Positions 4,578 through 61,793 of a DNA stretch of 64,000 nt are shown here, one piece after another. Below the pieces are notes generated by a model. The model did not search any database, was not told the DNA's origin, and saw nothing but the letters and a program-made list of their open reading frames with translations. Each line of letters begins with the position of its first letter. The first letter of the stretch is position 1. The DNA comes from Chiloscyllium plagiosum (Eukaryota): contig NC_057726.1 in the NCBI RefSeq assembly GCF_004010195.1, forward strand, positions 68,855,155-68,919,154, in the 5' to 3' direction. The position numbers and the translations under genes were made by a program.

Positions 4578-7500
4578 GTACGTTCAGCTTCCAATCTCCT
4601 TGTCAATCCGACTCTCCATTTTCCCATCTCTCCCGGCACACTCAGTGTCAGTGTCAAAATTTTTCAATTATCCTGACTCTCTCTCCCGCGCTCTCTGACT
4701 CTCTTTATCTGCCTCTCTCCCCTTTTTCTCAGGGTCTCTTAGCTACCAGAGCTGAAAATGTGTTGCTGGAGAAGCGCAGCAGGTCAGGCAGCATCCAAGG
4801 AGCAGGAGAATCGACATTTCGGTCATAAGCCCTTCTTCAGGCTTATGCCCAAAACGTCGATTCTCCTGTTCCCTGGATGCTGCCTGACCTGCTGCGCTTC
4901 TCCAGCAACACATTTTCAGCTCTGATCTCCAGCATCTGCAGACCTCACTTTCTCCTCTTAGCTACCAGCCTGTCACTCCCTGACTTTGGAAAATCTTTAA
5001 ACTTTTAAAACCGACAACTCTGACTAGCCCATAAGCTCTGCTTCTACACTTTGTTCTCTCTGCTACTGTCTTACCAGGTGTTTGTCTTTGCCAAGTCCTG
5101 AAGAATGTTCAGACTTCCCAGTCACTAAAACGCCCAACCAGTTCTAGTTGGACAGAAAGTTTCTGGGAGTGTGGCTGACTGAAGAGACTAGGCCTCAAAT
5201 ATGCAGTGTAAAAGCAAGCTGTACGTGACCCTGCTTCCTCTAGGTGTGCCATTTGAAAAGTGATATTTTAAATGTTGCATCTTAATGCTTTGCTGATATA
5301 TTTGGATTTGGCATCATTTCTGGCGCTGGCAATCTATTGCTCCAAATCACACTGAGATGAGTAAAGGACATTCAGTCCATAGTCTTTTTTTACTCATTGG
5401 CAAATAGGGTTAAGGAGAATCCAGAAGGTTTTTACAAATACATGAAGGACAAAAGGGTAGCTAGGGAGGGATCGGGGCCCCTCAAAGGTCAGCAAGGCAG
5501 CCTTTGTGTGGAGCTGTAGGAGACGAGGGAGATACTAAATGATTATTTTGCATCAGTGTTTACTGTGGAGAAAGTCATGGAAGATATAGAATGGAGGGAA
5601 ATAGATGGTGACACCTTGAAAAATATCAATATTACAGAGGAAGAAGTGCTAAGTGTCTTGAAATGCATAAAAGTGGATAAATCCCCAGGACCTGATCAGG
5701 TGTACCCTAGAACTTTGTGGGAAGCTAGAGAAGTGATTGCTGGGGCCCTTGCTGAGATATCTGTATCATCGATAGTCACAGGTGAGGTGCTGGAAGACTG
5801 GAGGTTGGCTAACATGGTGCCACCATTTAAGAAAGGTGGTAAGGACAAGCCAGGGGACTATAGACCAATGAAACTGACGTCGGTGGTGAGCAGGTTGTTG
5901 GAGGGAATCCTGAGGGACAGGATGTACATGTATCTGGAAAGGCAAGGACTGATTAGGGATAGTCAGCATGGATTTGTGAGTGGGAAATCATGTCTCACAA
6001 ACTTGATTGGGTTTTTTGAAGAAGTAACAAAGACGATTGATGAGGGCAGAGTATAGGACGTGATCTATATGGACTTCAGTAAGGCGTTCGACAAGGTTTC
6101 ACATGGGAGACTGGTTAGCAAGGTTAGATCTCATGGAATACAGGGAGAACTAGCCATTTGGATACAGAACTGGCTCAAAGGTAGAAGATAGAGGGTGGTG
6201 GTGGAGGGTTGTTTTTCAGACTGGAGGCCTGTGACCAATGGAGTGCCACAAAGATCGGTGCTAGGTCCACTACATTTCATCATATTTGATTTGGATGTGA
6301 GCATAAGAGGTACAGTTAGTAAGTTTGCAGATGACACCAAAATTGGAGGTGTAGTGGACTGTGAAGACAGTTACATCAGATTACAATGGGATCTTGATCA
6401 GATGGGCCAATGGGCTGAGAAGTGGCAGATGGAGTTTAATTCAAATAAATGCGAGGTGCTGCATTTTGGGAAAGCAAATCTTAGCAGGACTTATACACTT
6501 CATGGTAAGGTCCTAGGGAGTGTTGCTGAACAAAGAGACCTTGGAGTGCAGGTTCATAGATCCTTGAAAGTAGAGTCGCAGGTAGATAGGATAGTGAAGA
6601 AGGTGTTTGGTATTCTTTCCTTTATTGGTCAGAGTATTGAGTACATGAGTTGGGAGGTCATGTTGCGGCTGTATAGGATGTTGGTTAGGCCACTTTTGGA
6701 ATATTGCGTGCAATTTTGGTCACCTTTCTATCGGAAGGATGTTGTGAAACTTGAAAGAATTCAGAAAAGATTTACAAGGATGTTGCCAGGGTTGGAAGAT
6801 TTTGACTATAGGGAGAGGCTGAAGAGACTGGGGCTGTTTTTCCTGGAGCACCAGAGGCTGAGGGTGACCTTTCAGAGGTTTATAAAATTATGATGGGCAT
6901 GGGGTGGGAGTCCAGAACTAGAAGGCATAGGTTTAAGGTGAGAAGGGAAAGATATAAAAGAGACCTAAGGGGCAACTTTTTCATGCAGAGGGTGGTGCGT
7001 GTATGGAATGAGCTGCCGGAGGAAGTGGTACAGGCTGGTACAATTGTAACATTTAAAAGGCTTCTGGATGGGTATATGAATTGGAATGGTTTAGAGGGAT
7101 ATGGGTTGGGTGCTAGCAAATGGGACTAGATTAGGTTGGGGTATCTGGTCGGCATGGATGGGTTGGACTGAAGGGTCTGTTTCCATGTTGTATATCTCTG
7201 ACACTGTCACTCTATAACCAGGGAGATGCAGTTTTTCACTCTCCAGATCAGTGTCACGTGCAGTTATAGAGTCGTAGAGCTGTACAGCATGGAATTAAAC
7301 CCTTCGGTCCGACTCGTCCATACCGATCAGATATCCCAAATCCCAATTGGCCCATATCCCTCTCAACCCTTCCTAACCATATACCCATCCTGATGCCTTT
7401 TAAATGCTCTAATTGTACCAGCCTCCACCACATCCTTTGGCAGCTCATTCCATAAAGACACTGCCCTCTGCATGAATAGGTTGCCCTTTAGATCCCTTTT

Positions 7501-10500
7501 ATATCTTTCCCCTGTCCACTTAAATGTATGCCCTCTCGGTTTAAACATCCCTACCCTGTGCAAAGATCTTGTCTATTTACCCTATCCATGTCCCTCACGA
7601 TATACCTCTATAAGGCCATTCCTCAGCCTCTGATGCTGTAGGGAAAGTAGCCCCAGCCTAATTAGCCTCTCCCTATAGCTTGAACCCTGGCAACATCCTG
7701 TAAATGTTTCCTGAAACCTTTTCAAGTTTTGTAACATAGCAGGGAGACCAGAATTGAATGCTTATTCCAAAAGTGACCTTGCCAGTATCCAGTACAGAAG
7801 CAACATGACATCCCAACTCCTATACTCAATGCACTGTCCAATCATAGTAAGTGTACCAAATGGCTTCTTCACTATCCTGTCTACATGCGACTCCACCTCC
7901 AAGGAACTGTGAAGCTAAATGTTCCTCCACTGCCCTAGATACAGAGTTAACCCGCCTTGCACCCACACACCACTGCTACACTGCCCAGGAAACAGGGTAG
8001 TGTCTAAATAAGGAAGCCAAAACATGGTGCATAGCTTTAAATTAAGGGGTGGTAGGTATAGGACAGATGTTAGGGGTAGGTTCTTTACTCAGCGAGTCGT
8101 GAGTTCATGGAATGCCCTGCCAGTAGCAGTGGTGGACTCTCCCTCATTATGGGCATTTAAGCGGGCATTGGATAGGCATATGGAGGATAGTGGGCTAGTG
8201 TAGGTCAGGTGGGCTTGGATCGGCGCAACATCGAGGGCCGAAGGGCCTGTACTGCGCTGTATTCTTCTATGTTCTATGTTCTATGGTGCCTTTAACATAG
8301 GGAAGTCCCAAGATCCTGCACACCAATGTTACGAAGCAAGATTAGGCACTGAATCACGAACAGACACATTAAGACAAGATGACAGAAAGCTTTCTCAAAG
8401 GGCAAGAGACTTAAACGAGCGGTTTCCAAAAAGTGGAGAGCAAGAGCTGGAGATTAAACAAGAAACATCAGTCAGAAAGCTGAATGTCGAGCAGTTCACC
8501 ACAAATAGTGATTGATGTTACATTTGGAAAAAGGTTCTGGATAATTAATAGGTTCGGGAGAAACCAGGAGAAATGAGACTAAGATGCAAGTTTCGTGCAG
8601 AGTGACGTAAAAGGACACAGCCTGTCCAAGCTAAAATTTTCCACTTTTCTATCTCTAGGAGAGCCACATCACTGGGACTGAGGAATACTTATGCAGTTAT
8701 AATTAGTATGGGCAGCCTTGTATGAATCAGAAAAATTTTCAATTTGGCACCACAATTAACTGCCTAATGAGCAGTCCAGCGTGAGTGTCTGATAAGTGGA
8801 CAGCACCATGAGAGAACAGGACCACTCAGGTGTGTGTCAGACAGAGAAACAGACAAGCACCCAAATATTTAGCTCAAGAAGTAACTTTCCCTGAGAAGCT
8901 CACTTGTTTCCTAAATGATTCTAAGGTTTTCTTGAAATGCATGTTGCATCAGCAGTCAGCACTGCTGCCTCACAGCACCACGGACTTGGGTTCGATTCCA
9001 CCACCGGGTGACTGGTTGTGTGGGGTTTGCACATTCTCCGTGTGTCTGTGTGGGTTACCTCCGCGTGCTCCAGTTTCCTCCGGTAGTCCAGAGATGTGCA
9101 GGTTAGATGGATTGCCCACAGTGTCCAGGGATGTGCAATGTAGATGAGTCCGCCATGGGAAATGTGCGGTTACGGGGATAGGATAGGGGGCTGGGTCTGG
9201 GTTTGGGCAGGATGCGCTTTGGAGGGGCAGTGACGACATGATGGGTCAAACACTTTTGAGGTTTGAGTTCTGGAACTTTCCTGGGAAGCTTGCTCCTAAA
9301 GGGTTAAATATAAAATGACTCTGAGGAGACAGAGTGTACCAGTAATTATTGACATGTTAAACATTGATGGTCCTGGAACCTGTTCAACAACTCCGGCCTT
9401 TCTCATCACAAAGATTTATCTGGTGTGTTTGCAGTTGCTCAGCAACCCCACTTTCCCTCAGTAATGCTATCTCTTATTCCAGTGGAGCCTGATAACATTT
9501 TTTTAAAAAACGGCTCAAGACCTGTCCGCAGTCAACGTAGTCGAGCAGCCGCAATTGGGAAAGGGGTCTCTTGCCCAGAGTGAACTGGCCAGAACCAGCA
9601 ACAGTATGGCCGAGCCTGACCTAGTGAGATCACAGGCCCCACCCACACTCCCACTCCCCTGCCCATGACGAAGATGGTTAGTTGTGTGGATAGGTTCAAA
9701 CTCTGAAACAATGATCCCCGTGGTGGAATAGCCTCCTGGGATGACGATGGCAGCCTCCAGTTTCCCACCCTACCCCTTTTGTTTTGGTTTTCAGAATCAA
9801 AACAATATTATGTAAGAAAGAGGTCATTCAGCCCATCATCTAGTCTGCCTGTGTTACCTAGTGCCAATCTCCTGCCTTTTTCCTCATATTCCTGCACACC
9901 ATTATGTCGAAACCATCCAATGCCTCCTGGAGTGTCTCAACTGAGCCTTCCTCCTTACAGGGCACTCCAAACCCTAACTGCATGCTGAGTGAACATTTTC
10001 TTTCATATTACCATTGCATCATTTGCACATCACTTTATATCTATGCCCTCTCGTTCTCGTTTCTTTTATGAGCAGAAACAATTTCACCCAATCTACTCTA
10101 CACAGTCCACTTATAATGTTGAAAACCTCGACTAAATCTCCCCTTATCGACCTTTCCTTCCTAACTTTTTCAATCATCTTACATATGTTGAGGTTGGTGA
10201 GGCTGTTCTGGAGACTGTGTCCGGTTCTGGTCACCCTGTTATAGGAGGGATATTGTTAACCTAGAGAGGGTTCAGAAGAGCTTTATCAGGATGTTGCCGG
10301 TAATGGAGGGTGTGAATTATAAGGAGAGGCTGGATAAATTGGGACATTTCACTGCAATCTAGGGGGTTGAGGGGTGACCTTTATAGAGGTTTACAAGATC
10401 TTGAGGGTTATCGATATATATGAATGACCGGCGTCTTTTCCCTAGGGTGGGGAATTTCAAGACTAGCGGCATATTTTTAAAGTGAGAGGAGAAGGACTTA

Positions 10501-19500: not shown

Positions 19501-21972
19501 ATCCGTGGCACCGAGGCTCACCACTGAGTCACTGCACTGCCTCAGGTATTGCTCATTCCGGGTGTCAATGTAATAAACCTGATCCACCTCCAATGCGCTT
19601 ACATCCTTTCTTCAATAAGGAGACCAAAACTGGGCACAATAATTGAGATGTGGTCTCACCAATGCTTTCTATATTCATAATGTTCAAGTCCTCTCATGAT
19701 TAAAGGACAGTAACCCATTGGTCTTTCTGATTATTTGCGATAACTGCATGCTCACTCCATCGTGAGCACGGTCCCTTCGACCTGTATGTTAATGTGCGTC
19801 TCAACGTTCTGGTCTATACATTTCACAGTTGAGCACTGGGGAAGCTTGCAAGCTTACTCTTCCTTCAAGATGGAAAATGGGATATTTACTTGGGATGTAG
19901 GCATCATTGGCTGGGCTTTGCTTAACAGAGACATCAGTGACTGAGAGAGCGCAGATTTAAAGTATTTGGGAGATGAGAAAACGTTCCTTAATTTCACCCG
20001 GAGGTGAACTAGGGTCTGGAACTCTCTGCCTGAATGGTGATAGATTGGGAAAGGGGGAAATGCAATGAAACCTGGGTGTCCTTGTGCACTAGTCGCTGAA
20101 AGTACGCAAGCATGCAGGTACAGCAGGCAGTGGGGAAAGTAAACGGTGTGTTGGCCTTCAGAGTGCGAGGATTTGAGTACAGGAGCAGGGATGTCTTGCT
20201 TCAATTGTGCAGGGCTTTGGTGATACCACACCTGGCTTATTGAGTACAGTTTTGGCCTCATTCTCTAAGGAAGGATGTTCTGGCTGTAGAGGGAGTGCAA
20301 CAAAGATTTACCAGATCGATTTCTGAGATGACAGGGTTGACGTATGAGGAGAGACAGGATTGGTTAGGACTTTAATTTACTGCAGTTCACAAGAATCAGG
20401 GTGTTCTCATAGAAACCTCTAAATTTTGACACCACTAAACCGTTTAGATGTAGGAAGGATAATAGACAATAGGTGCAGGAGTAGGCCATTCTGCCCTTCG
20501 AGCCTGCACCACCATTCAATCTGATCATGGCTGATCATCCTTAATCAGTATCCTGTTCCTGCCTTATCTCCATAACCCTTGATTCCACTATCCTTGAGAG
20601 CTTTATCCAACTCTTTCTTAAATGAATCCAGAGACTGGGCCTCCACTGCCCTCTGGGGCAGAGCATTCCACACAGCCACCACTCTCTGGGTGAAGAAGTT
20701 TCTCCTCATCTCTTTCCTAAATGGTCTACCGTATTTTTAAGCTGTGTCCTCTGGTTCGGCACTCACCCATCAGCGGAAACATGTTTCCTGCCTCCAGAGT
20801 ATACAATCCTTTAATAATCTTATGTTCCTGTTAGTCTGGGTGTAGGGCTTGTCTACATTGGTTGCTGTACTGTCTGTCTGTCTCTCGCTCCCTCTCTCAC
20901 ACACGTGCGTCAGGGTCTCTGACTGTGTTTGTAATTGACTTCCAGGTGCCTGCGGAATGACCGTGCCATGACATCCGATATCGCCAGCTATTACCAGCAC
21001 TATGCCAGGGTCAAGGGACTGCAGGAGCACTTTGCATGTGGTACCGTTGTGACTTCAGTGAGGAGGGTTAGTCTGGATTCTAGTGCAGAAAGCCAGGTCA
21101 ATGTGAGCGCAGATAGTCCAGCAGGAGCTCGGGTCTTCAGGCACTCCACCAGCACAAGCCTCTTTGAGGTGATCGGTTCCAGCAAATCCGAGGACGGCTC
21201 AGAAAAGGCTTTCCGCATCTTCGCAGAGAAGGTTGTCTTGGCAACGGGCATGTATGACAGCCCTGCTTGGCTTGGCGTTGATGGTGAAGATCTTCCGTTT
21301 GTTCACCACACGACTTCAGAACTCGACCGAACCCTCAAGGAGCGGGAGACAGGACTGAACTCTGACCCCATTCTGATCATCGGAGGCGGCCTAACCGCCG
21401 CAGACGCTATCATCGCCGCTCACCATGGCAACGTCTCGGTGATCCATGTCTTCCGCAGAGGGGTCAATGACCCAGGGCTGATCTTCAACCAGCTTCCCAA
21501 AGTCATGTACCCAGAGTATCACAAAGTCCACCAGATGATGATCCAACAGTCCTGCACCACCACAGGACCCTACGAAGGGTATCTCAGTCTCCCCAAACAC
21601 CGTATGCTGGCTTTCACCCCAGACAGAAAGTGCATCATTGAGGATCTGATGTCAGCAGAGAAGAAGGTGTTCAATGTCTCCATGGCCTTCATTCTGATTG
21701 GCTCAAATCCTAACTTGACCTTGCTGCCTGATTGCGGAAGGTCACTGGCAATCAACCCGGAGCTCGCTGTTAACAGCAAACGTAACCCCCTTGACGTGGA
21801 TTGCTACACTTATGAGTGTGTGCAGGAACGGGGACTCTATGCCCTGGGCCCGCTGGTGGGAGATCACTTTGTACGTTTTCTGCAAGGAGGGGCTCTGGCT
21901 GTGGCGAGGTCTCTCCTTAAGGAGCGTCAGGGTGCCCAGTTTCAAACTGACAGGCAGCTTTTGATCAGCTGA
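4517..21972 (+). CDS. OSGIN1: OSGIN-family (oxidative stress-induced growth inhibitor 1-like) FAD/NAD(P)H oxidoreductase; join(4517..4577,12819..12955,14826..15017,18510..18601,20946..21972), 1509 nt, 502 aa
   Basis: Five exons splice in frame with GT-AG introns (phases 1,0,0,2). Motifs VVIGNGPSAICLSYLLSG, DLEYLSEGLEGRS, GGAWHSIEGSM, VVLATG, IIGGGLTAAD, FNQLPKVMYPEYHKVHQMM and GPLVGDHFVRFLQGG match the OSGIN family as recalled. SIEGSM and LLRPD favour OSGIN1 over OSGIN2. Confidence 0.88.
4750..4954 (+). mobile_element. Fold-back Penelope-derived short element
   Basis: About 85-bp inverted arms; 14-bp TSD CTCTTAGCTACCAG (4736-4749 / 4955-4968). Confidence 0.85.
5395..7205 (+). mobile_element. 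5'-truncated CR1/HER1-like LINE (ORF2 RT, disrupted)
   Basis: KSPGPD, YRP..LTS, QHGF..KSCLTNL, GVPQ.SVLGP, FADDTKIG and the C-terminal region, with stops and frameshifts. Confidence 0.95.
7265..7915 (-). mobile_element. CR1 LINE 3' fragment, tail-to-tail with the preceding copy
   Basis: WNELPKDVVEAG on - plus 3' UTR. Confidence 0.85.
8031..8283 (+). mobile_element. Young CR1 3' end with (TTCTATG)n tail
   Basis: Near-identical to 51395-51645; flanked by an ATGGTGC direct repeat. Confidence 0.85.
8950..9250 (+). mobile_element. HE1-like SINE
   Basis: GGTTCGATTCC B-box and V-domain. Confidence 0.8.
10185..10715 (+). mobile_element. CR1 3' fragment nested in an older minus-strand CR1 (~9800-10970)
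   Basis: Degenerate ERVQKS..RML / RVVRV peptides; the flanks read as RGDLVEVFNII...ETRTRGH on -. Confidence 0.75.
11368..11962 (-). mobile_element. Possible solo LTR
   Basis: Starts TGTTATGG and ends CCATAA (inverted termini); about 600 bp; minus-strand AATAAA; no coding remnants. Confidence 0.3.
12819..12955 (+). CDS. OSGIN1: OSGIN1-like coding exon 2 (GNGPSAICLSYLLSG...ISIIEQ)
   Basis: CCAG| acceptor, CAG|GTATC donor, 137 nt; lies in ORF 12782..13063. Confidence 0.92.
13865..14440 (+). mobile_element. CR1 3' fragment
   Basis: LRLYRTLERPLL..CVQFW..KLERVQKR. Confidence 0.85.
14826..15017 (+). CDS. OSGIN1: OSGIN1-like coding exon 3 (DLEYLSEGLEGRS...GGAWH)
   Basis: Pyrimidine tract + TAG| acceptor; CAT|GTAAGT donor; 192 nt. 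Confidence 0.93.
15901..16143 (+). mobile_element. HE1-like SINE, internally deleted, TAATC-repeat tail
   Basis: GGCGGCACGGTGGCACAGTGGTTAGCAC head, GGTTCAATTCCC B-box, V-domain. Confidence 0.9.
16650..17150 (-). mobile_element. CR1 3' fragment
   Basis: Reverse complement of the CR1 tail at 500-745. Confidence 0.85.
17688..18015 (+). mobile_element. HE1-like SINE, full length
   Basis: tRNA head, V-domain and tail. Confidence 0.9.
18200..18328 (+). mobile_element. Short Penelope-derived hammerhead element in OSGIN1 intron 3
   Basis: CTGATGA-AGGGC-TTTT-GCCC-GAAACATT followed by the family 3' body. Confidence 0.82.
18510..18601 (+). CDS. OSGIN1: OSGIN1-like coding exon 4 (SIEGSMFTLSLGDWMELPDLPFRDWMRLKR)
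   Basis: Not in the ORF track; read manually. CCCTGACAG| acceptor, AAG|GTAATC donor, 92 nt. Confidence 0.92.
19218..19545 (-). mobile_element. HE1-like SINE
   Basis: Diverged reverse complement of the SINE at 17688. Confidence 0.82.
20035..20830. mobile_element. CR1 RT fragment (+, ~20035-20460) followed by a young CR1 3' end (-, ~20461-20830)
   Basis: Degenerate ALVIPHL..QFW/QRFTR on +; AGGAGTAGGCCATTC tail on -. Confidence 0.75.
20946..21972 (+). CDS. OSGIN1: OSGIN1-like terminal coding exon
   Basis: TTCCAG| acceptor; ORF 20935..21972 with second Rossmann motif IIGGGLTAAD and C-terminal GPLVGD motif; TGA stop. Confidence 0.95.
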
Positions 21973-36150: not shown

Positions 36151-36676
36151 AGGAGTTAATATTTCAGATCGAGTGACTGTTCCTCAGAATCTGACCTGAA
36201 ACATTAACTCTGATTTCTCTCCACAGATGCTACCAGGCCTGCTGAGCTTTTTCAGCAATTTCTGTTTTTGTTTCTGATTTATGGCATCCGCAGGTTTTGT
36301 TTTGGTTTTTATTGTTAGACTACAGTCTGCCTGTTACCCACATTTATCACGTTTTAATTCTGTATTTTAGAGAAAACGTTGTGTAATTATTGTGGATTAT
36401 TTTACTTGTTAATAAAGTTTATTGTTGTTTGTTGAAAATCATAGCAGTTCTGACTTTATTTTCTTAATAATCCTATAATATCAAACTTCATCTACTTCAA
36501 GCAAACAATATTACTGATCCTTAATCAGATCAGAACATAGCTTGGTCTGGATTCATAACGTGATCTCGGGGAGAGAAAATAAACTTTCTCCTTACTAACT
36601 CAAAATTGTTGACATTTTCAATTTCAGAAGAATTGTTTGTCATATTCAATGTTTTGTTATTGGACTAGTAACGTAA

Positions 36677-36845
36677 GAGATGGAAATGTGTTGCTGGAAA
36701 AGCGCAGCAGGTCAGGCAGCATCTAGGGAACAGGAGAATCGACGTTTCTCCTGTTCCCTAGATGCTGCCTGACCTGCTGCGCTTTTCCAGCAACACATTT
36801 CCATCTCTGATCTCCAGCATCTGCAGACCTCACTTTCTCCTCAAA
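36677..36845 (+). mobile_element. Fold-back Penelope-derived element with a perfect 63-bp stem
   Basis: Arms 36676-36738 / 36746-36808; 14-bp TSD GACTAGTAACGTAA (36663-36676 / 36846-36859). Confidence 0.9.
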
Positions 36846-37600: not shown

Positions 37601-37790
37601 GAGTCGAAGGATATGGTGCTGGAAAAGCACAGCAGGTCAGGCAGCATCCGAGGAGCAGGCGAATCAATGTTTTGGGCATAAGCCCATCATTAGGTTCCTG
37701 ATGAAGGGCTTATGCCTGAAATGTCGATTCTACTGTTCCTTGGATACTGCCTGACCTGCTGTACTTTTCCAGCACCACACTCTTGGCTCT
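37601..37790. mobile_element. Fold-back Penelope-derived element with hammerhead cores on both strands
   Basis: CTGATGAAGGGCTTATGCCTGAAATGTC from 37698, with an inverted copy upstream. Confidence 0.82.
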
Positions 37791-44879: not shown

Positions 44880-47060
44880 TTTAGTTATGTCTTTTAGATG
44901 CTGGTTTAAATCTACCACTTATATATCGACCGCCTCAGCCTGTCCACCCCTTCTCACCCACTCCAACCTCTCACTCTCACAGCCCTCCACTCCCTCCGCT
45001 CCAACCCCAACCTCACCACCAAACCAGTGGGCAAGGGCGGGTGGGGGACCGCAGTGGTAGCATGGCACACTCACCTCTACCTTGCTGAAGCTTGATGCCA
45101 ACTCTCTGACACCTCTTCCTAATGGACCCTCGACCATGACCCCACCTCCCATCACCAAGCCATCATCTACAACCTCATCACTTCAGGGGATCTCCCAACC
45201 ACAGCCTCCAACCTCATAGTGCTCCAACCCTGCAGTGCCTGGTTCTATCTCTTAGCCAAAATCTACGAACCTGATTATCCCAGTCGACCAATTGTCTCTG
45301 CCTAGCCCTGCCCCACTGAACTTATCTCCTCATATCTCAATTCCATCCTATCCCCTTGGTCCATGAACTCTCCACATATGTCCAGGACACCACCCACACC
45401 TTCCACCTTCTTGATGACTTTTGATTTCTCGGTCCCAAACACCTCATATTCATTATAGACATCCAGTCCAAGTACACCTCCATCCTCTATGATGAATGCA
45501 TAAAAACCCTCTGTTTCTTCCTCTGCCTCCAACCCAAACAGTCTCCCTCCACCAATGCTCTCATTCGATTAGTGGAACTGGTTCTCACCTTCAACAATTT
45601 CTCATTTGAATCCTCCCACATCCTATGGACAAGAGGGGTAGCCATGGGCACCCGCATGGGCTCCAGCCATGCCTGCCTCTTTGCAGGCTATGTGGAACAG
45701 TCCATCTTCTGCAGTTACACTGCCACCATTCGCCACCTTTTCCTTTGCAACATTGATGACTGTATTGGCACCACCTCGTGCTCCCACGAGGTGACTGAAC
45801 AGTTAATCAACTTCACTAACACCTCTCACCCTGACCTCAAATTCATATGGACCATCTCCGAGACCTCAATCCCCTTCCTGGAACTCTCCATCTCCATTTC
45901 CGGCGACTGACTCAACATCGACATCTATTTCAAACCCACCCATTCCCACAGCTAGTTTATCTACACCTCCTCCCACACCCCCTCCTATAAAAACACCATC
46001 TCTTACTCCCAATTCCTTTGCCTTTGCTGCATCTGCTCCCAGGAGGAGCAATTCCACTCCAAGACTTCCCAGATGTCGTCCTATTTCAGTGACTGCAGTT
46101 GCCCCTCCTACATGATCAACAATGCCCTCACATCTCCTTCACTTTCCATGCCTCCACCCTCAAACCCCAAACCCCCAACCACAGGAATAGAAACCCCCAG
46201 TCCTCACATTCACCCACAAATCTCCAGATACAGTACTTTATCCTCTGCCATTTTTGCCATCTACAGTCAAAGCCCAACACTAAAAATATATTTCCCTCTC
46301 CAGCCCTATCTGCATTCTCCACCAACCCACCCACTACAGCTGACACCTTCACCACTACTGCACAAAGTGCAAAACCTGCACCAACTCCTCTCCCATAACC
46401 TCTGCCCAAGGCCTGAAGCATCATTTCAAATCTGGCAGAGATTTTCCTGCAAATCACTTTATTTACTGCATCATTACTCTCAATGTGGTGTCCTCTACAT
46501 CAGGGAGACAGAAAGCCAACTCACAGAGCAGATCAGGGAATATCTCCGGTCACTTACACCAAGCAACTGCACAGTCCTGTGGCCAACCATTTCAACTCTT
46601 CCTCGCATTCCCCCAAGGACATGCAAATCCTGGGCCTCCTCCACTGCCAAATCAAAACCACCAACCAACTGGAGGAAGAATGCCTCATCATCTGCCTTGG
46701 GAACCTACAGCCTATATGAACATTGACTTCACCAGCTTCCAAATCTCCCCACCGCCCAGCTCATCCTAGATCCAACCCCCAACTCGGTACTTCCCTCTTG
46801 ATCTTACCTATCTGTTCATCTTCCTTTCCACCTATACATTCCACCTTCCCCACAAACCTATCACAATTACCTCTTACTTGCATTCACCAATCACCATTCC
46901 ACCTACCGTCCTCCAAGCCCCAATCCCACCCCTTTATCTCTCAGCCCCCTTCCCTCTCTACATTCCTGATGAAGGGCTTATGCCCAAAATGTTGACTCTC
47001 CTGGTCCTCGGATGCTGCCTGACATGCTGTGTTTTTTCCAGCACCACACCTTTCAACTCC
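44880..47060 (+). mobile_element. Decayed Penelope-like retroelement (RT + GIY-YIG remnant + 3' hammerhead)
   Basis: FYLLAKIYEPDYPSRPIVS (~45243), LTFNNFSF..GVAMGTRMG..NIDDC..HPDLKF..IPFLE, CGVLYIRET (~46485), CTGATGA at 46966; many stops and frameshifts. Confidence 0.88.
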
Positions 47061-47214
47061 AATTCTTGGAACAAGAATTCCTTAGATAAATCTATGTCAA
47101 ACATCTTTTTAATTATCTTTCAAATCACCTTGAGACATTTTGTTGCATTAAGATAATAAACAAATTCATGTTGCTGTCACCTGATGTCAGTTTCCCTTTG
47201 AAAAATGCTTCCGG

Positions 47215-50825: not shown

Positions 50826-51091
50826 CATTGGGGCTGGACCGTTGTTCCGAAGTATTTCAGCTGGTGCATAACTCTGTGCGCAAGAAATATGTCGCTAGTC
50901 TAACGTGACATGATTTTAAAAAAGTTATCATCAAATAAAATCCGTGTTAGGCATCAGCGCTGAAAATTGCAAATGTTCATTCGTTCCAATTCACCTTTAT
51001 TTCATGCAAAAAGATGTGTGCAATTCGAAACCAAAAGAGAAGATGCTGGAAAATCTCAGCAGGTCTGGCAGCATCTGTAAGGAGAGAAAAG

Positions 51092-51645
51092 ATGGGGTAC
51101 TGGGCTAATGGTCGGATACTTGGTAGTGTGGATGAGCAGAGGGATCTTGGTGTCCATGTACACAGATCTTTGAAAGTTGCCACCCAGGTAAATAGTACGG
51201 TGAAGAAGGCATATGGCGTACTGGCTTTTATTGGTAGAGGAATTGAGTTCCGGAGTACTGAAGTCATGTTGCAGTTGTATAAGACTCTGGTGCGGCCGCA
51301 TCTGGAGTATTGTGTGCAGTTTTGGTCACCATACTATAGGAAGGATGTGGAGGCACTGGAACGGGTGCAGAGGAGGTTTACCAGGATGTTGCCTGCTTTA
51401 AATTAAGGGGGGGTAGGTATAGGACAGATGTTAGGGATAGGTTCTTTACTCAGCGAGTCATGAATTCATGGAATGCCCTGCCAGTAGCAGTGGTGGACTC
51501 TCCCTCATTATGGGCATTTAAGCGGGCATTGGATAGGCATATGGAGGATAGTGGGCTAGTGTAGGTTAGGTGGGCTTGGATCGGCGCAACATCGAGGGCT
51601 GAAGGGCCTGTACTGCGCTGTATTCTTCTATGTTCTATGTTCTAT
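51092..51645 (+). mobile_element. Young, internally deleted CR1 inserted into a minus-strand hammerhead element (51028-51691)
   Basis: Clean RT C-terminal peptide QRDLGVHVHRSLK..LEYCVQFWSP; AAAAGA duplicated at both junctions. Confidence 0.88.
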
Positions 51646-52318
51646 AAAAGAGCTGACATTTCGAGTCTAACTGCCCCTTTGTCAAAGCTGTGTACAATTC
51701 GACTTGCCGCTTTCCATTCCGCCGTTGAAACAATTCCTCCAAGTGAATGTGCGAGCAGTTGATGACATTAGGTATGTGACTGTTAACAAGAAAACAGGTT
51801 GAAAACGAAGCGGAAGCATTGCATGCATCAACAGATCATGGGTTAAGTCGAAATTTAGTTATTCTTTTTTTTTTAAAAAAAACGATGTTCAAGCTTATTT
51901 CTTAAAAGATGCGCCACAGACATTGCGCTCTCGATTCATTGTCAGAATCTACATCTGAGTGGGCGTGAGACTTCCGTCTAGCTCCTGTTTTGTAGGTATT
52001 GCTGCAAACCTCAGACGTTATGTAATTTCATTGATTAATTGAGACAACTGGCAGCTCTGTCACGGCATTACATCGAGGTTTCTTCAGAAGGCATTAATAA
52101 TTCTCAGTTAAGGGAAGAATTAAGATATATGCATATGGAATGGAATGTGAGGTAGATGAGGAGCAGTGAGCAGCTAGGAAGACAATGCAATGTTAGCTTT
52201 AACTTCAGTATGCAAGAGCAACATTTCTGTTCCTTCCTAACAATGACGATTTGGTCAAGTCGCTCCAATAATACCAATTGGCTCTCACCAGGTTTTAGTC
52301 CAAGGTTAAATACAGTCA

Positions 52319-52428
52319 GAAAAGCATAAAAGCTTTGACAAAGGGTCAGTTAGACTCGAAACGTCAGCTATTTTCTCTCCTTACAGATGCTGTCAGACCT
52401 GCTGAGATTTTTCAGCATTTTCTCTTTT
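52319..52428 (+). mobile_element. Penelope-derived short element with a U3-A8 variant hammerhead
   Basis: 15-bp TSD GGTTAAATACAGTCA (52304-52318 / 52429-52443). Confidence 0.85.
52331..52369 (+). ncRNA. Minimal type-I hammerhead ribozyme motif (predicted)
   Basis: AGCT-TTGACAA-A-GGGTC-AGTTA-GACTC-GAAA-CG-TC^-AGCT; stems I and II pair; palindromic ACGT stem III. Confidence 0.65.
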
Positions 52429-53983
52429 GGTTAAATACAGTCAATTGCATCTGAGAGGCGGGTAAGATTCTGAAACTGTAAGAGCTTAGGGATGGATTTA
52501 GGCTAATCGGCCCATCAACCTTGTCCACCATTCGATCATGGCAGATATGTTTCTCAACCTTATTCTCTCGTCTACTCCCCAGAACCTTTGATTCACTTAC
52601 TAGTCAAAAACCTATCCATCTTTATCTAAGATCCACTCAACATTAATAGTAGAAATATTAGGGATAGCAGCTTTGGGGCCATACTGCAGCATATGGTTAG
52701 TTGGCCTTGGAGGTAGATGCACCAGGAATGAGAACGAATTTGGGATTGAGATGTGACCTCGTAGAGATTCATAAAACCATGAAGAATATTCTTAGGATTA
52801 ATGGTAGGTATTTTACCCTAGAACGGGGGATTTTAAGACAAGGGGAAGGTATACATTTTTAAGGTAAGAGGAGAGAGATTGAAAAAAAGACGTGGGGGAC
52901 AACTTTTTTACACAGAATCTGGTTCACGTGTGGAATGAACTTTCTGCACAAGTGATGGGTGTGGGCACAGTTACAATGTTTAAAAGACACTTCGATAAGT
53001 ACATGAATACAAACGGTTTGCAGGAACAGGCAGGGGGGGCTAACTTAGTTTGGGTTTAGATCGCAGAGTCTGCCTCAATGCTCCATGACTACATAACTTA
53101 GAAGTAATTGCAGAAGATTTTTTTTCTTTATCCCTGGAACTAGCAATTATAACTTTTGGTCTCACGCAGCTAATCTGCAATCAATAAATGGCAATCACAC
53201 AGAGCTCAGCACTGAGCAATAGAGTAAAGAAAACCGACTAGAAATATCCCAGGCTGGAAATGCATTACGTAAAAGCTTTTTCAGACCACACAGGTTTTGT
53301 TAAACGTGAACTTGTATCCATCACCTAGAGCATGTGAAAGGAATGAACAGCAATAAACAGTGAAAGGAGACTGTGTTTTATGGAATTGTTAGTGAAGAAT
53401 AGGAAACTCGGAGCAAGGAATGGGGAAGAAAGGGAATATACAATGAATCATGTTAAAGTGCCCAAGTCAGTGGATATGACAACTGGTTTAGCTAGATTAC
53501 ATCTCAAAAGTATACGGAAACACATTACCAGAAAGAAAGGTCGATGAAAAGGATTATTTATAAATCAGCTTCAGGAAGGACTTTTTGGATCAGGAAACTA
53601 AATACTTAAGTTTCTAGCAACGAATTGATATGACAACTGAAGAAGACCCAGGGCAAATAAATTAGTAACACAGAGCATCAACTTAGCAGACTAAGTCTTT
53701 ACTAAATGTGTAGTGAAATGCTGTATAAGATATAAACCGGACTAGATGAGATATACAGTCATCAGATTGATTTGTTTAAACTTGGAGAATAGATTAAAAA
53801 AATGACAGTTTTCTTTAAAAGGAACCACACAAAAGCCTATAATATGACACAACAAACATTCTATCTCCTGAGGATGGTATCACACTGAGGATATCACACT
53901 GGGAGTAAAGAATGGGGCTCATAGGATAATCGACTGGGTGAAGGTTATTGAAGAGTTTAAATCTGGTACACCAATAATACGAA

Positions 53984-54179
53984 GGAGGAGAAAGTGAGGG
54001 CTGTACATCAGAGTCGAGAATGTGATTCCTGAAAAGCACAGCAGGTCAGGCAACATCCAAGGAGCAGGAAAACCTTCATCAGGAATGGTGGTGAAGGGCT
54101 TATGCCTGAAACGTCGATTCTCCTGCTCCTTGGATGCTGCCTGACCTGCTGTGCTTTTCCAGCACTACACTCTCGAAAT
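53984..54179. mobile_element. Fold-back Penelope-derived element
   Basis: Inverted arms; TSD CAATAATAYGAA (53972-53983 / 54180-54191). Confidence 0.82.
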
Positions 54180-57100
54180 CAATAATATGAAACATGCCAT
54201 GCGATGCAATCCAAACTATTTGGAGATACACTGTATACAAAAACAGACTAAACCTTTAGCTCTGCAGGTCGATTCTAAGAGCACAATATTTTTCTTTGGC
54301 TTGTGCATTCATAATTGACCAGGAATCAACAAGTTATGAATCTGTAATGGACCAAACAGGCTTCAGAGAAAATTCTATGTTGTCACCACACGCTGTTATA
54401 TCTGATGAATAAGATGCTCCAAACTGGAAATCCAAATCTGGGTAATTTCAACTGCTCAGAATGCGAATACTTGAAAAGATGTAGTACTGGCACATTAGTT
54501 TCATTTAGCTGCACTCGAAATGAAATTAACATGGGATCATGAGCCAGTTCCATCCATTCCACTATTTAAATGTTATTTAAATGTTATCTCTACCAGTAAT
54601 CTGTCAGTGACAGTGCAGGGTCTGAACCAGAACGGGATCTGTGACAGTGCGGGATATGTACCAGTACTGGGTCGGTGACAGAGTGGGGGGCCTATACCAG
54701 TACTGGGTCTCTGACAGTATGGGGTCTGTACCAGTACTAAGTCTGTGACAGTGCGGGGTCTGTAACAGTACTGGGTCAGTGACAGTGCGGGGTCTGTAGC
54801 AGTACTGGATCTGTGACAGTGTGGAATCTGTACCAGTACTGGGTCTGTGACAGTGTGGAATCTGTACCAGTACTGGGTCTCTGACAGTGTGGGGTCTGTA
54901 CCAGTACTACGTCTGTGACAGTTTGGAGTCTGTACCCGTACTGGGTCTCTGACAGTGCGGATTCTGTAGTAGTACTGCGTCTGTAACAGTACAGGGACTG
55001 TACCAGTACTGGGTCTGTGTCGGCGTGGGGTCATGTATCGGTACTGGATATGTGAAAGTTTGGAGTCTGTACCAGTACTGGGTGTGTGACAGTGTGGGGT
55101 CTGTACTCGTACTGGGTCTAGGACAGTGCTGGGTCTGTACCAGTACTGGGTCTGTGACAGTGAGGGGTCTGCAGCAGTACTCGGTATGTGACAGTGTGGG
55201 GCCTATACTAGTACTGTGTCTGTGACAGTCTGGGGTCTGTACCAGTACTAGGTCTTTGACAGTGTGGGGTCTGTACTCGCACTGGGTCTCTGACAGTATG
55301 GGGTCTGTACCAGTACTGGGTCTGTGACAGTGTGAGGTCTGTACCAAGGCTGGGTGTGTCACAGTGTGGGGTCTGTACCAGCACAAGGTCTGTGTCGGTG
55401 TGAGGTCTGCATCTGCACTTCATATGTGACAGTGTGGAGACTGTCCCAGAACTGTGTCTGTGACAGTGAGGTGTCTGTTCCAGTACTGGGTCTGTGACAG
55501 TGTGGAGTCTGCACCAGTATTGGGTCTGTGACAGTGCGGGGTCTTTACCGGCACTGGGTCTGTGACAGTAAGGGGTCTGTACCAGTACTGGGCCTGTGAC
55601 AGTGAGGGGTCTGTACCAGTATTTGTCTGTGACAGTGTGGAGTCTGTACCAGTACTGGGTCTGTGACAGAGTCGAGTCTGTACCGATACCGGGTCTGCGA
55701 CAGTCTGGTGTCAGTACCAGTACTGGGTCTGTGAAAGTGTGGGGTCTGTACCAGTACTGGGTCTGTGACAATTAGGGGTCTATACCAGTACTGGGTATGT
55801 GACAGTGTGGACTCTGTACCAGTACTGGGTCGGTGACAGTGTGGTGTCTGTACCAATACTGGGTCTGTGACAGTGCAGGGTCTGTACCAGTACTGGGTCT
55901 GTGACAATGTGAGATCTGTAGCAGTACTGGGTCTGTGACAGTGCTGGGTCAGTACCAGTACTGGGTCTGTGATAGTGTGGAGTCTGTACCAGTATTGGGT
56001 CTCTGACAGTGTGGAGTCTGTATCAGTACTAGGTCTGTGACAATGTGGTGTCTGCACCAGTACTGGATCTGTGACTCTGCATGGTCTGTACCAGTACTGG
56101 GTCTGTGACAATTAGGGGTCTGTACCAGTACTGGGTATGTGACAGTGTGGAGTCCGTACCAGTATTTGCCTGTGACAGTGTGGAGCCTGTACCAGTAATG
56201 TGTCTCTGACAGTGCGGGGTCTGTAGCAGTACTGGATCTGTGACCGTGCAGGGCCTGTACCAGTACTGCGCCTGTGTCGGTGTGGGGACTGTACCAGTAC
56301 TGTGTCTGCGACAGTGCAGCGTCTGTACCAGTACTGGCTCTCTAATAGTGTGGATTCTGTACCTGTACTGGCTCGGTGACAGTGTGGAGTCTGTATCAGT
56401 ACTGGGTCTCTGACAGTGTGGGATCTGTAGCAAGACGGTGTCTGTGACAGTGCAGGGATTGTACCAGTACTGGGTGTGTGACAGTGTGGGGTCTGTACCA
56501 GTACTGGGTCTCTGACAGTGTGGAGTCTGCACCAGTAGTGGGTCTGTGACAGTACGGTGTCTGTACCAGTACTGGGTTCTGACAGTACGGGGTCTGTACC
56601 ATACTGCTTCTGTGACAATGCAGGGTCTGTACCAGTACTGGGTCAGTGTCGGTGTGGGGCTGTATCTGTACTGGGTCTCTGACAGTGTGGAATCTGTACC
56701 AGTACTGGGTGTGTGACAGTGTGGGGTCTGCACCAGTAGTGGGTCTCTGACAGTACGGGGTCTGTACCATACTGCTTCTTTGACAATGCAGGGTCTGTAC
56801 CAGTACTGGGTCAGTGTCGGTGTGGGGCTGTATCTATACTGGGTATGTGACAGTGTGGAGTCTGTACCAGTATTGGGTATCTGACAGTGTGGAATCTGTA
56901 TCTGTACTGGGTCTGTGACAGTGTGGCGTCTGTACCAGTACAGGGTACTGGGTACTGTCACATACCCAGTACTAGTATAGACCCCTAATTGTCACAGACC
57001 CAGTACTGGTGCAGACTCCACACTGTCACAGACCCAATACTGGTACAGATTCCACACTGTCAGTACAGGGTGTGTGACAGTGTGAGGTCTGTACCAGTAC

Positions 57101-59072
57101 TAGGTCTCTGACAGTGTGGGGTCTGTACTAGCACTGGGTCTGTGACAGTGAGAGATCTGTACCAGTACTGGGTCTCTGACAGTATGGGATCTGTACCAGT
57201 ACTGGATCAGTGACAGTGCGGGGTCTGAACAGTATTGGGTCTGTGACAGTGCAGGGTCTGTACCAGTACTGGGTCTGTGATAGTGTGGAGTCTGTACCAG
57301 CACTGGCTCTCTAACAGTGTGGAGTCTGTACTTGTACTAGTTCTGTGACAGTATGGAGTCTGTACCAGTATTGGGTCTCTGACAGTGTGGGATCTGTAGC
57401 AGTACTGTGTCAGTGACAGTGCAGGGACTGTACCAGTATTGGGTCTGTGTTGGTGCGGGGTCGTGTATCTGCACTGGATATGTGACAGTGTGGAGTCTGT
57501 ACCAGTACTGGGTCTCTGATAGCGAGGGGTCTGTCCCAGTACTGCATCTATGACAGTGTGGAGTCTGCACCAGTAGTGGGTCTGTGACACTGCGGGGTCT
57601 GTACCAGTACTGGGTCTGTGACAGTGTGGGGTCTGTACCAGTACTGCGTCTCTGACAGTACGGGGTCTGTACCATACTGCTTCTGTGACAATGCAGGGTC
57701 TGTACCGGTACTGGGTCCGTGTCGGTATGTGGTTGTATCTGTACTGGGTATGTGACAGTGTGGAGTCTGTACCAGTATTGGGTCTCTGACATTGTGGAGT
57801 CTGCACCAGTACTGGGTCTGTGACAGTGTGGAGTCTGCACCAGTACTGGGTCTGTGACACTGCAGGGTTTGTACCAGTATTGGGTCTGTGACAATTAGGG
57901 ATCTGTACCAGTACTGGGTATGTGACAGTGTGGAGCCTGTACCTGTACTGGGAGTGTGACAGTGTGGGGTCTGTACCAGTACTAGGTCTCTGACATTGTG
58001 GGATCTGTACCAGTACTGGGTCTGTGACTGTACGGGGTCAGTACCAGTATTGGGTCTGTGACAGTGTGGGCTCTGTACCAGTGCTGGGTCTGTGACAGAG
58101 CGGATCTGTACCAGTACTGGATCTGTACCAGAACTGTGGCTGTGAAAGTGTGGAGTCTGTACCAGTACTGGGTCTGTGACAGTGAGGGATCTGTTCCAGT
58201 ACTGGGTCTGTTACAGTGCGGGCTCTGTACCAGTATTTGGTCTGCGACAGTGCAGTTTCTGTATCAGTACTGTGTCTGTGACAGTGTGGAGTCTGTACCA
58301 GTACTGGGTCTGTGACAGTGTGGGTTCTGTACCAGTACTGCGTCTGTGACAGTGTGGGGTCAGGACTAGTATTGGGTCTGTGACAGTGTGGTGTCTGTTC
58401 TAGTACTGGGTCTGTGACAGTGTGGAGTCTGTGCCAGTACTGGGTCTGCGACAGTGCAGCGTCTGTACCAGTAGTGAGTCTCTGACAGTGTGGTTTTTGT
58501 ACCAGTACTAGGTCTCTGACAGTGCGGGGTCTGTAGCAGTACTGCGTCTGTGACAGTGCAGGGTCTGTGCCAGTACTGGGTCTGTGTCGGTGTGGGGTCT
58601 GTATTTGTACTGGGTATGTGATAGTTGGTTTCTATACCAGTACTGGATCTCTAACAGTGTGGAGTCTGTACCAGTACTGGGTCTGTGACAGTGAGGGGTC
58701 TGTACCAGTACTGGGACTGTGACACTGAGGGGTCGGTAGCAATACCGGGTCTGTGAATGTGTGGAGTCTGTACCAGTAGTGGGTCTGCGACAGTGAGGTG
58801 TCTGTACCAGCACTGGGTCTGTGACAGTGTGGGGTCTTCACCAGTACTGTGTCTGTGACATTGTGGAGTCTCTACCAGTAGTGGGTCTGCGTCAATGTGG
58901 AGTCTGTACCAGTACTGGGTCTTTGACACTGTGTGGTCTGTACCATACTGGATCTCTGACAATGTGGTGTCTGTACCAGTAATGGATCTGTGACAGTGTG
59001 GTGTCTGTACCAGTACTGGGTCTGTGACAGTGTGGTGTCTGTACCAGTAATGGGTCTGTGACAGTACTGGGT

Positions 59073-59612
59073 AAAGTTTGTGAGAAGATTTGTATCTCGG
59101 GTGCTCGTTGTTGTAGTTCTGTTCGCCGAGCTGGGAATTTGTGTTGCAGACGTTTCGTCCCCTGTCTCGGTGACATCCTCAGTGCTAGGGAGCCTCCTAT
59201 GAAGCGCTTCTGTGATGTTTCCTCCAGCATTTATAGTGATTTGTATCTGCCGCTTCCAGTTGTCAGTTCCAGCTGTCCGCTGCAGTGGCCGGTATATTCG
59301 ATCCTGGTCGATGTGTTTGTTGATGTAATCTGTGGGTGAGTGCCATGCCTCTAGGAATTCCCTGGCTGTTCTCTGTTTGGCTTGTCCTATAATAGCAGTG
59401 TTGTCCCAGTCGAACTCATGTTGCTTGTCATCCACGTGCTTGTCATCCACGTGTGTGGCTACTAAGGATAGCTGGTCGTGTCGTTTCGTGGCTAGTTGGT
59501 GTTCATGGATACGGATCATTAGCTGTCTTCCTGTTTGTCCTATGTAGTGTTTTGTGCAGTCCTTGCATGAGATTTTGTACACTACGTTGGTTTTGCTCAT
59601 GCTGGGTATGAC
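59073..59612 (-). mobile_element. Penelope-like 3' fragment (GIY-YIG endonuclease + hammerhead), copy 1
   Basis: NVVYKISCKDCTKHYIGQTGRQL..RIHEH...REFLEAWH; CTGAGGA..GACGAAACGTC. Confidence 0.9.
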
Positions 59613-60007
59613 AAACAGGGAGACAGTGTGGAGTCTGTCCCAGTAGTGGGTCTGTGACAGTGAGGTGTCTGTACCAGCACTGGGTCTGTGACAGTGTGGG
59701 GTCTTCACCAGTACTATGTCTGTGACATTGTGGAGTCTGTACCAGTAGTGGGTCTGCATCAATGTGGAGTCTGTACCAGTACTGGGTCTTTGACACTGTG
59801 TGGTCAGTACCATACTGGATCTCTGACAGTGTGGGGTCAGTACCAGTACTGGGTCTCTGACAATGTGGTGTCTGTACCAGTAATGGATCTGTGACAGTCT
59901 GGGGTCAGTACCAGTACTGGGTCTGTGACAGTGTGGTGTCTGTACCAGTACTGGGTCTGTGACAGTGTGGTGTCTGTACCAGTAATGGGTCTGTGACAGT
60001 ACTGGGT

Positions 60008-60547
60008 AAAGTTTGTGAGAAGATTTGTATCTCGGGTGCTCGTTGTTGTAGTTCTGTTCGCCGAGCTGGGAATTTGTGTTGCAGACGTTTCGTCCCCTGT
60101 CTCGGTGACATCCTCAGTGCTAGGGAGCCTCCTGTGAAGCGCTTCTGTGATGTTTCCTCCGGCATTTATAGTGATTTGTATCTGCCGCTTCCAGTTGTCA
60201 GTTCCAGCTGTCCGCTGCAGTGGCCGGTATATTCGATCCTGGTCGATGTGTTTGTTGATGTAATCTGTGGATGAGTGCCATGCCTCTAGGAATTCCCTGG
60301 CTGTTCTCTGTTTGGCTTGTCCTATAATAGCAGTGTTGTCCCAGTCGAACTCATGTTGCTTGTCATCCACGTGCTTGTCATCCACGTGTGTGGCTATTAA
60401 GGATAGCTGGTCGTGTCGTTTCGTGGCTAGTTGGTGTTCATGGATACGGATCATTAGCTGTCTTCCTGTTTGTCCTATGTAGTGTTTTGTGCAGTCCTTG
60501 CATGAGATTTTGTACACTACGTTGGTTTTGCTCATGCTGGGTATGAC
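60008..60547 (-). mobile_element. Penelope-like 3' fragment (GIY-YIG + hammerhead), copy 2
   Basis: Near-identical to copy 1 at +935 bp. Confidence 0.9.
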
Positions 60548-61793
60548 AAACAGGGAGACAGTGTGGAGTCTGTCCCAGTAGTGGGTCTGTGACAGTGAGG
60601 GGTCTGTACCAGTAATGGGTTTGTGACAGTGAGGGGTCTGTTCCAGTACTGGATCTGTGACAGTGAGGGGTCTGTGCCAGTAATGGGTCTGGTAGCCAGA
60701 CAGATAATGTATGTCAACCAGACATGGAAAAAACCATATTATTAGCGTATTATTGACATTGGAACTCTTGTTCAGTAAATTGAACAGGTTGCCGAAAAGT
60801 AGTGAGAACAAAGTAAATACACCGCAGTTTAACTGATATGTACCAACAAGTATTAGCTTTAACAGGCAGTGCAATGTTTTGAAACGTGCCTAATTTTTAA
60901 TTGTATCATCTCTGTTCCACTTAGAAATTGTCTTTGGATGTCGATTGAACAGATACAATTTCGCAACAAAATAATGTAAAACTGCAAGAAAGAGCAATGA
61001 CCGGTTGTATTGCCCGATTCGCTTCTTTTCTGCTGAAGAGAGCAACGGTGTTTTTACATCCCAGAATGGCTGCCTAAATAACCGTGAATGTGAGACTAGT
61101 ACGCGTTATGTAAGAGAGGGAGGGAAACTGAATGTGTGCGTGTGTCTATCGCTATGCATATGTGTATGAGGAGAGAGTAATGTGTGAAAGAGTAACAGAG
61201 ATAGGTATCTGAGTTAGAGCGTGGTGTGAGTATGAAATAGTTTAGAGATGGGGCAGTAACTCAAAGTGAGATTTGCGATACACAGTGCACCTGAACTACT
61301 AAAAAACCGAAAATAAAAACTGGATGCTCATAATTAGAGATATCCCTGTATGAGACGCAGGCAGTGAAAGATTAAGGTGCGTGTGGGTGAATGGTGGTTA
61401 GGCGAATGAGAGAGGGAGAGCTGCTTGTTGGACGCAGCACTAATTAAGAGATAATTACTGGATAAGTGAGTGTGAGATCCCTGCGCAATGAACAACGGCT
61501 GAGAAATGATTGCGATAGCAACACGGTCTGAATGATGATACTGTAAACGAGTGCTGCATGTGTAAGAGGCAGCAAGGAGAAATTGAAGTGTCAGGTGACA
61601 GTGATGATGTGGAGGTGGCGGTTGGATTGGGTGGACAAGTCGCACGACACCGAGTTACAGTCCAACAGGTTTATGTGAAATCTTATGCTCCCTGGTCAGG
61701 ACTTCACCTGGTGTCGTGTGACACAGTGAGTGCGAGGTGGGTGTTAGCACTGAACGACACGTTAGCATTCAGTGATAGGGTTCATTTTTGTTC

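Follow-up and report, generated by a model that had tools for sequence, protein, structure and literature searches.

The 64,000-nucleotide stretch of Chiloscyllium plagiosum DNA analysed here, the window, carries on its forward strand at 52331-52369 a hammerhead motif in which the C3-G8 pair of the catalytic core is replaced by U3-A8. The motif is real and not a chance match. It lies in a 114-base insert flanked by a 15-base duplication, and we consider it probable that this insert comes from a likely Neptune-type Penelope-like element as a solo, likely retrotransposed end (a pseudo-LTR stub), holding a minimal type I hammerhead whose U3-A8 pair recurs in a second copy within the window and is likely to have been selected in the source element. 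The copy itself is old and probably inert. The features concerned are listed below, with the basis of each assignment in brackets.

52304..52318 (+): 5′ copy of the target-site duplication, 15 bases, the first four of which are also the 3′ end of the family (sequence)
52319..52330 (+): 12-base addition private to this locus, with a short AAAAGC repeat inside, not family sequence (depth drop)
52331..52334 (+): 5′ strand of stem I, AGCT; among the loose ends listed, the commonest 5′ edge of family copies (sequence)
52335..52341 (+): catalytic box TTGACAA, read as U3-U4-G5-A6-C7-A8-A9, the U3-A8 variant (sequence)
52342 (+): extra A between positions 9 and 10.1 (sequence)
52343..52357 (+): stem II, 5 bp with one G·U and a 5-base loop; strands 52343-47 and 52353-57 (sequence, pairing)
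52343 with 52357 (+): the G10.1-C11.1 pair, G52343-C52357 (sequence)
52358..52361 (+): GAAA, or G12-A13-A14-A15.1 in the numbering of PMC4209133 (sequence)
52358..52365 (+), GAAA included: palindromic ACGT replacing helix III, and the GUC triplet, with the predicted cut after 52365 (sequence)
52366..52369 (+): 3′ strand of stem I, AGCT (sequence)
52370..52432 (+): tail common to other Penelope-like ends, which ends before the optional extension of other copies (sequence comparison)
52429..52443 (+): 3′ copy of the target-site duplication (sequence)
51646..51689 (-): second copy, hammerhead half, with a stem II mismatch and C15.2U; 5′ duplication at ~51689-51702 (sequence)
51091..51645 (+): LINE fragment splitting the second copy (sequence comparison)
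51029..51090 (-): second copy, tail half; 3′ duplication at ~51015-51028, 13/14 identical to the 5′ one (sequence)
45425..47060 (+): decayed reverse transcriptase-endonuclease element, with a C3-G8 hammerhead and the shared tail at its end (homologs, translation)

The TTGACAA core, stems I and II and the cut predicted after 52365, as proposed in a preliminary description of this DNA, can be read directly from the sequence. The stems had been called intact, which is so for AGCT/AGCT in stem I and for GGGTC/GACTC in stem II, except that the latter includes one G·U pair (G52344·U52356); the extra A at 52342 was absent from that description. In order, the motif consists of stem I, the core, the extra A, stem II and then GAAACGTC. 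It has all the sequence characters of the metazoan Penelope minimal hammerhead, namely the core box variant, the extra base, G10.1-C11.1, GAAA, a palindromic 15.2-16.2 and a NUH triplet, along with helix II (5 bp) and the short helix I (4 bp) closing the type I fold. We equate it with the published minimal hammerhead anatomy because of the extra base after A9, the G10.1-C11.1 pair, the palindromic 15.2-16.2 and the short helix I. A strict motif descriptor found two matches in the window, and this one alone had a 4-bp stem I; 60 windows simulated with a first-order Markov model gave 14 matches in total, one with a 4-bp stem I, and none in which U3-A8 occurred together with such a stem. The Rfam search of the whole window (E<=1) returned eight matches, none of them to a hammerhead family, and exact-pattern scans of metagenome contigs and viral contigs gave no match.

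Pairing probabilities reached 0.99-1.0 for the five base pairs of stem II and 0.43-0.89 for the four of stem I. In the monomer fold G5-A6-C7 pairs with the GUC triplet at a probability of 0.95. The idea that this decoy helix is special to the U3-A8 subfamily was ruled out, as 4/9 C3-G8 copies pair G5 at 0.75 or more. With ViennaRNA, whose model does not extend to the tertiary core, the dimer fold came to -15.1 vs -21.6 kcal/mol and is hence not the minimum-energy one. U3-A8 and C7 together create an 11-base palindrome, CTTTG-A-CAAAG, around A6 (52333-52343), of which the self-duplex is valued at -7.1 kcal/mol vs -3.1 kcal/mol for the helix III duplex.

The Penelope connection comes from the tail. 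An anchored search for the tail motif gave 22 matches in the window, two with 5 mismatches, one of which was dropped as a chance match before alignment; the tail is common to ~20 stubs, and one of these terminates the element at 45425-47060. The first frame of this element has 82 homologs, many of them carrying PF00078, and its later frames translate to a CxxCxxC linker and to GIY-YIG-like text, which we take to be an endonuclease motif; Pfam gave no supporting family for the pieces of this element. The CxxCxxC linker has been tied to the Neptune and Nematis clades (PMC8557442), and 45425-47060 is likely a Neptune-type Penelope that represents a sister family and not the parent of the U3-A8 subfamily. 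In BLAST the tail of our insert matched the main sister family at a best E of 1e-4 and the decayed element at 0.007, while direct alignment to the end of that element (46955-47080) was marginal, scoring 47 vs a shuffled maximum of 44. We found no coding copy, with an RT/GIY-YIG frame, attached to the U3-A8 subfamily, and its Penelope parent is therefore one that we infer. Inverted 5′ copies, an optional tail of 30-40 bases and duplications of 8-10 bases are among the described features of Penelope elements, to the extent that the sources consulted cover them; here we find duplications of 11-15 and 13-14 bases, inverted 5′ copies and an optional tail.

The family as a whole was followed in assembled contigs and in RNA reads. 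In contigs of three DNA-type runs, summed depth over the ribozyme was ~460,000 in organism A, 468,000 in organism C and 66,000 in organism B, against 9-26 over the flanks, and a rough conversion would give ~1,250, 2,500 and 380 copies, respectively; depth is not copy number, however, and only 61% of the B run and 89% of the C run were read. Loose 5′ ends at 52331, with unrelated sequence upstream, occurred in 50, 52, 54 and 13 contigs of four runs, and inverted 5′ copies centred on AAAGCTTT in 18, 14, 28 and 9 contigs; the plurality line of the inverted arms reads G5-A6-C7-A8 in 4/4 runs. At the other end, an extension beyond 52432 is common (157, 161 and 173 contigs) yet optional, and is absent from the locus copy. 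The plurality letters before the 52331 edge end in TTTC in three DNA runs, to give TTTC-AG, which could reflect a preferred target, a remnant of the element or a splice acceptor; in Drosophila Penelope an intron is described to end at helix I (PMC4209133).

Family copies have decayed at their CpG sites, the catalytic G12 included: non-majority letters make up 8.5-12.3% of summed depth at G12 and 15.6-23.6% of depth at G16.2, vs <=0.8% at two non-CpG neighbours. In organism B only 9-12% of the plateau depth reaches the core, vs 45-69% in A and C. About nine tenths of the related sequence of organism B (run X9) aligns only from ~52340 on, so that the dominant class there either differs at the front of the catalytic core or is without it. 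More distant relatives were seen in organism E (run X16, which we guess to be RNA), where 41/53 contigs are <90% alike. One raw RNA run, of which ~2% was read, contained 125 family reads on both strands, all fitting in part, and none over the flanks of the locus. No pile-up of read ends was listed for this run, a poly(A) single-cell library ill-suited to the detection of cleavage. G12 was intact in 40/40 of the RNA reads vs 8-12% changed in DNA depth, a difference that we discount since the reads come from few loci.

The double change at positions 3 and 8 had been put forward as evidence that cleavage was selected in this lineage, on the ground that C3 and G8 form a Watson-Crick tertiary pair, which agrees with the published account (PMC3884650), and that the same change appears in an independent minus-strand copy. 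The pair is indeed kept, and activity in vitro is stated for hammerheads with covariation at these two positions (PMC3088659). However, although the second copy is a separate insertion, it belongs to the same subfamily, with 6 differences in 106 bases (3 in the 44 head bases and 3 in the 62 tail bases), and U3-A8 is therefore one inherited event, not two; cleavage, moreover, is a prediction. The LINE fragment that splits this second copy, presumably a CR1 judging from its protein and 3′-repeat likeness, is 96.6% identical in its 3′ part to 8024-8284, 43 kb away, and its two junctions have a repeat of up to 6 bases (AAAAGA).

Across the 19 recognisable cores of the window, a count that speaks for the window and not for the whole family, the 3/8 pair is C-G in 14, U-A in two (both copies of the subfamily), U-G in two and C-U in one; we read the three mismatched cores as decay after insertion because each has further core damage. 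Two random changes among 13 core positions would produce a complementary 3/8 pair with a chance of ~0.5-0.7%, or 1.4-1.9% if any of three core pairs is allowed. The other 11 conserved core positions are intact, and both stems differ from those of the main sister family in the window. Given this chance for a single event, and a core that was kept as the stems diverged, it appears likely from these comparisons that the source lineage was under selection for the active fold, and with it for the 3-8 pair. Since C7-G8 is a CpG, G8A likely came first and C3U would then have restored the pair. The stubs span the cut site at 52365 and so record uncut or re-joined RNA, and by themselves are no proof of cleavage.

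The same Penelope stub could also carry a U3-A8 pair that was fixed with no selection for cleavage, as two common transitions that hitch-hiked in a master copy whose ribozyme was no longer important. We regard this as unlikely, although it is the best of the alternatives: it needs one event only, both changes are transitions, a C at position 7 places G8 in a CpG, and the two changes complete the 11-base palindrome around A6. It would also agree with the insertion of PAc, the green anole element, in vitro without need of cleavage (PMC11167929), with the Naiads, said to multiply well without a hammerhead (PMC8557442), and with the failure of most related sequence of organism B to match across the core. 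What speaks for selection instead is that 11 other core positions stayed intact while both stems diverged from the main sister family, that a complementary double change has a chance of ~0.5-2%, and that the same swap occurred in two Schistosoma families, going by the published material consulted.

Improbable to a further degree is a self-standing, non-autonomous non-LTR retrozyme, in which the ribozyme would cut tandem transcripts into circles. Our family resembles such elements in being short and non-coding with a type I hammerhead related to Penelope ends, in its copy number of about a thousand or more (a rough estimate), and in its complete stem I and sharp 5′ edge, and according to a 2026 preprint the retrozymes of animals descend from Penelope ends (bioRxiv 10.64898/2026.07.22.740005). 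By the definition given there, however, retrozymes are tandem units with at least two complete ribozymes, whereas both copies in the window are solo; head-to-tail joints occur in only about three single contigs, and the copies begin at stem I, where a cut monomer would begin at the cut site.

The insert at 52331 was earlier described as a young copy with a perfect 15-bp duplication. The 15-mers at 52304-18 and 52429-43 are identical, but GGTT, 4 of the 15 bases, is also the family's own 3′ end, and the true duplication is therefore of 11-15 bases. The family sequence stops at the front of stem I: in run X1 the summed depth, ~460,000 on the plateau, is down to 42-300 at 52318-25, and the private addition at 52319-52330 has one match elsewhere in the window, with 1 mismatch. 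Youth does not hold. The majority letter differs from this copy at 52370, 52393 and 52412 in three DNA runs (at least 3 differences in 102 bases), and a 15-base duplication would stay perfect at 3% divergence with a chance of 0.40, so that its perfection gives no date. The insertion is moreover found at the same site in organism C, where one contig spans the 5′ flank into the ribozyme, with 79 and 38 letters on either side of the junction, and where ~7 of 162 flanking bases differ (~4%). Because the site is filled there, the insertion is older than the split of A and C. A single contig of organism B passes from the tail into the 3′ flank and differs at 10 places, with 1 gap, over ~114 bases; it is suggestive only, as its 23 letters on the element side fall below the 31-letter rule of the comparison tool; the insertion probably also predates the A/B split. 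A junction joining flank directly to flank, the mark of an empty site, was listed for none of the runs; contigs can show presence but not absence. That the copy is young and cuts a host transcript is accordingly very improbable, for although it is the only structurally complete hammerhead of the window by the strict descriptor and has a perfect duplication, it carries at least three private changes, occupies a site shared with organism C and probably B, has as a solo copy no dimer partner in cis, and drew none of the 125 partly fitting RNA reads over its flanks (one raw run, ~2% read).

For the stub that we favour, the likely course is as follows. The transcript would start at the front edge of the ribozyme, 52331, and be bound by the Penelope protein, which would nick A/T-rich DNA. 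Reverse transcription would be primed ~100 bases into the RNA, possibly aided by the 4-base target match, and copying to the 5′ end of the RNA would leave a stub that spans the uncut ribozyme, together with a duplication of 11-15 bases. The ribozyme of the source lineage would cut after 52365, either as a dimer or with the protein of the element, and it is on the source element that selection would act. The geometry of PAc fits, since the copies here begin at the front edge of stem I and reach ~100 bases downstream: reverse transcription of PAc is reported to start ~110 bases past the hammerhead, inside the RNA, with uncut RNA as the main template and a ribozyme that cuts only with the protein; cutting is partly rescued by the C3G/G8C double mutation (Frangieh et al. 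2024, PMC11167929). PAc is like our family in its pseudo-LTR hammerhead, downstream RT start and optional tail, but it belongs to the Poseidon clade, has C3-G8, and had its protein assayed.

Natural U3-A8 hammerheads, described as proven active in vitro, have been reported (Perreault et al. 2011, PMC3088659), as have ~1,300 U3-A8 Penelope hammerhead matches in Schistosoma (Cervera and De la Pena 2014, PMC4209133). The U3-A8 swap is already published, and the present case is a further example and not a new kind of core. The examples of Perreault et al. show the same covariation, with no tie to Penelope elements given in the portion of PMC3088659 consulted. By our own count of 56 family representatives in Fig. 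S3 of PMC4209133, 53 have C3-G8, two U3-A8 and one, Saccoglossus 1, U3-G8; the vertebrate rows of that figure are C3-G8 in 11/11 and include 0 cartilaginous fish. The closest in kind are the Cercyon hammerheads of Schistosoma mansoni, which, as described, share U3-A8, the extra base after A9, the lack of a real helix III and the short helix I, and also occur mostly as solo copies in high copy number. In our case, by contrast, the host is a vertebrate, the element is likely of Neptune type, position 7 is C and the stems are other ones, and on account of these differences from Cercyon the vertebrate U3-A8 probably arose independently. The Neptune hammerhead of Acropora digitifera (PMC4209133, Table S1 and Fig. 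S3) is alike in its GCU/AGC stem I, C7, extra A, CGUC cleavage region and similar stem II ends, and unlike in its C3-G8 and 4-bp stem II, a resemblance that does not amount to shown descent. No report of a vertebrate U3-A8 hammerhead was found in the literature searched, most subscription papers being outside its scope, and ours may be the first vertebrate example.

Penelope minimal hammerheads have low activity in vitro, and in the one reconstituted system insertion went ahead without cleavage, which makes it of interest whether they are active in vivo and whether the element depends on it. Fixation of a compensated 3-8 pair in a lineage that spread successfully lends indirect support to selection for the active fold, and the U3-A8 lineage offers a ready test of wild type against single changes. 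Schistosoma already supplies the same argument, to which a probably independent vertebrate case is added here and no new principle. A bolder version, which we advance tentatively and hold to be somewhat doubtful, is that a U3-A8 hammerhead evolved independently in a Penelope lineage of vertebrates, the first such case, through CpG decay of G8 and rescue by C3U, and that this lineage then multiplied in several related fishes to roughly a thousand copies or more, with a sister lineage in organism B changing the front of the core again. If true, it would provide a natural mutant-and-rescue series from which to judge whether such weak ribozymes are selected for cutting in the germ line.

The window as a whole consists of animal DNA with many LINE fragments, and it has some further Penelope-like ends. 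Two copies of another such 3′ end, whose hammerhead cores are at 59182 and 60117, lie at ~58870-60890 (-) inside a long, degenerate tandem repeat (~54500-61000); the element at 59840-60889 has a sub-threshold Pfam match to GIY-YIG (E 0.026). C3-G8 stubs of the sister family stand head to head in inverted pairs at 4747-4957, 36676-36842, 37611-37790 and 54000-54173, the first two of which gave rise to spurious Rfam microRNA matches. Lastly, an open frame of 345 residues at 20935-21972 (+) contains pyridine nucleotide-disulphide oxidoreductase domains (Pfam) and is presumably an OSGIN-like host exon.
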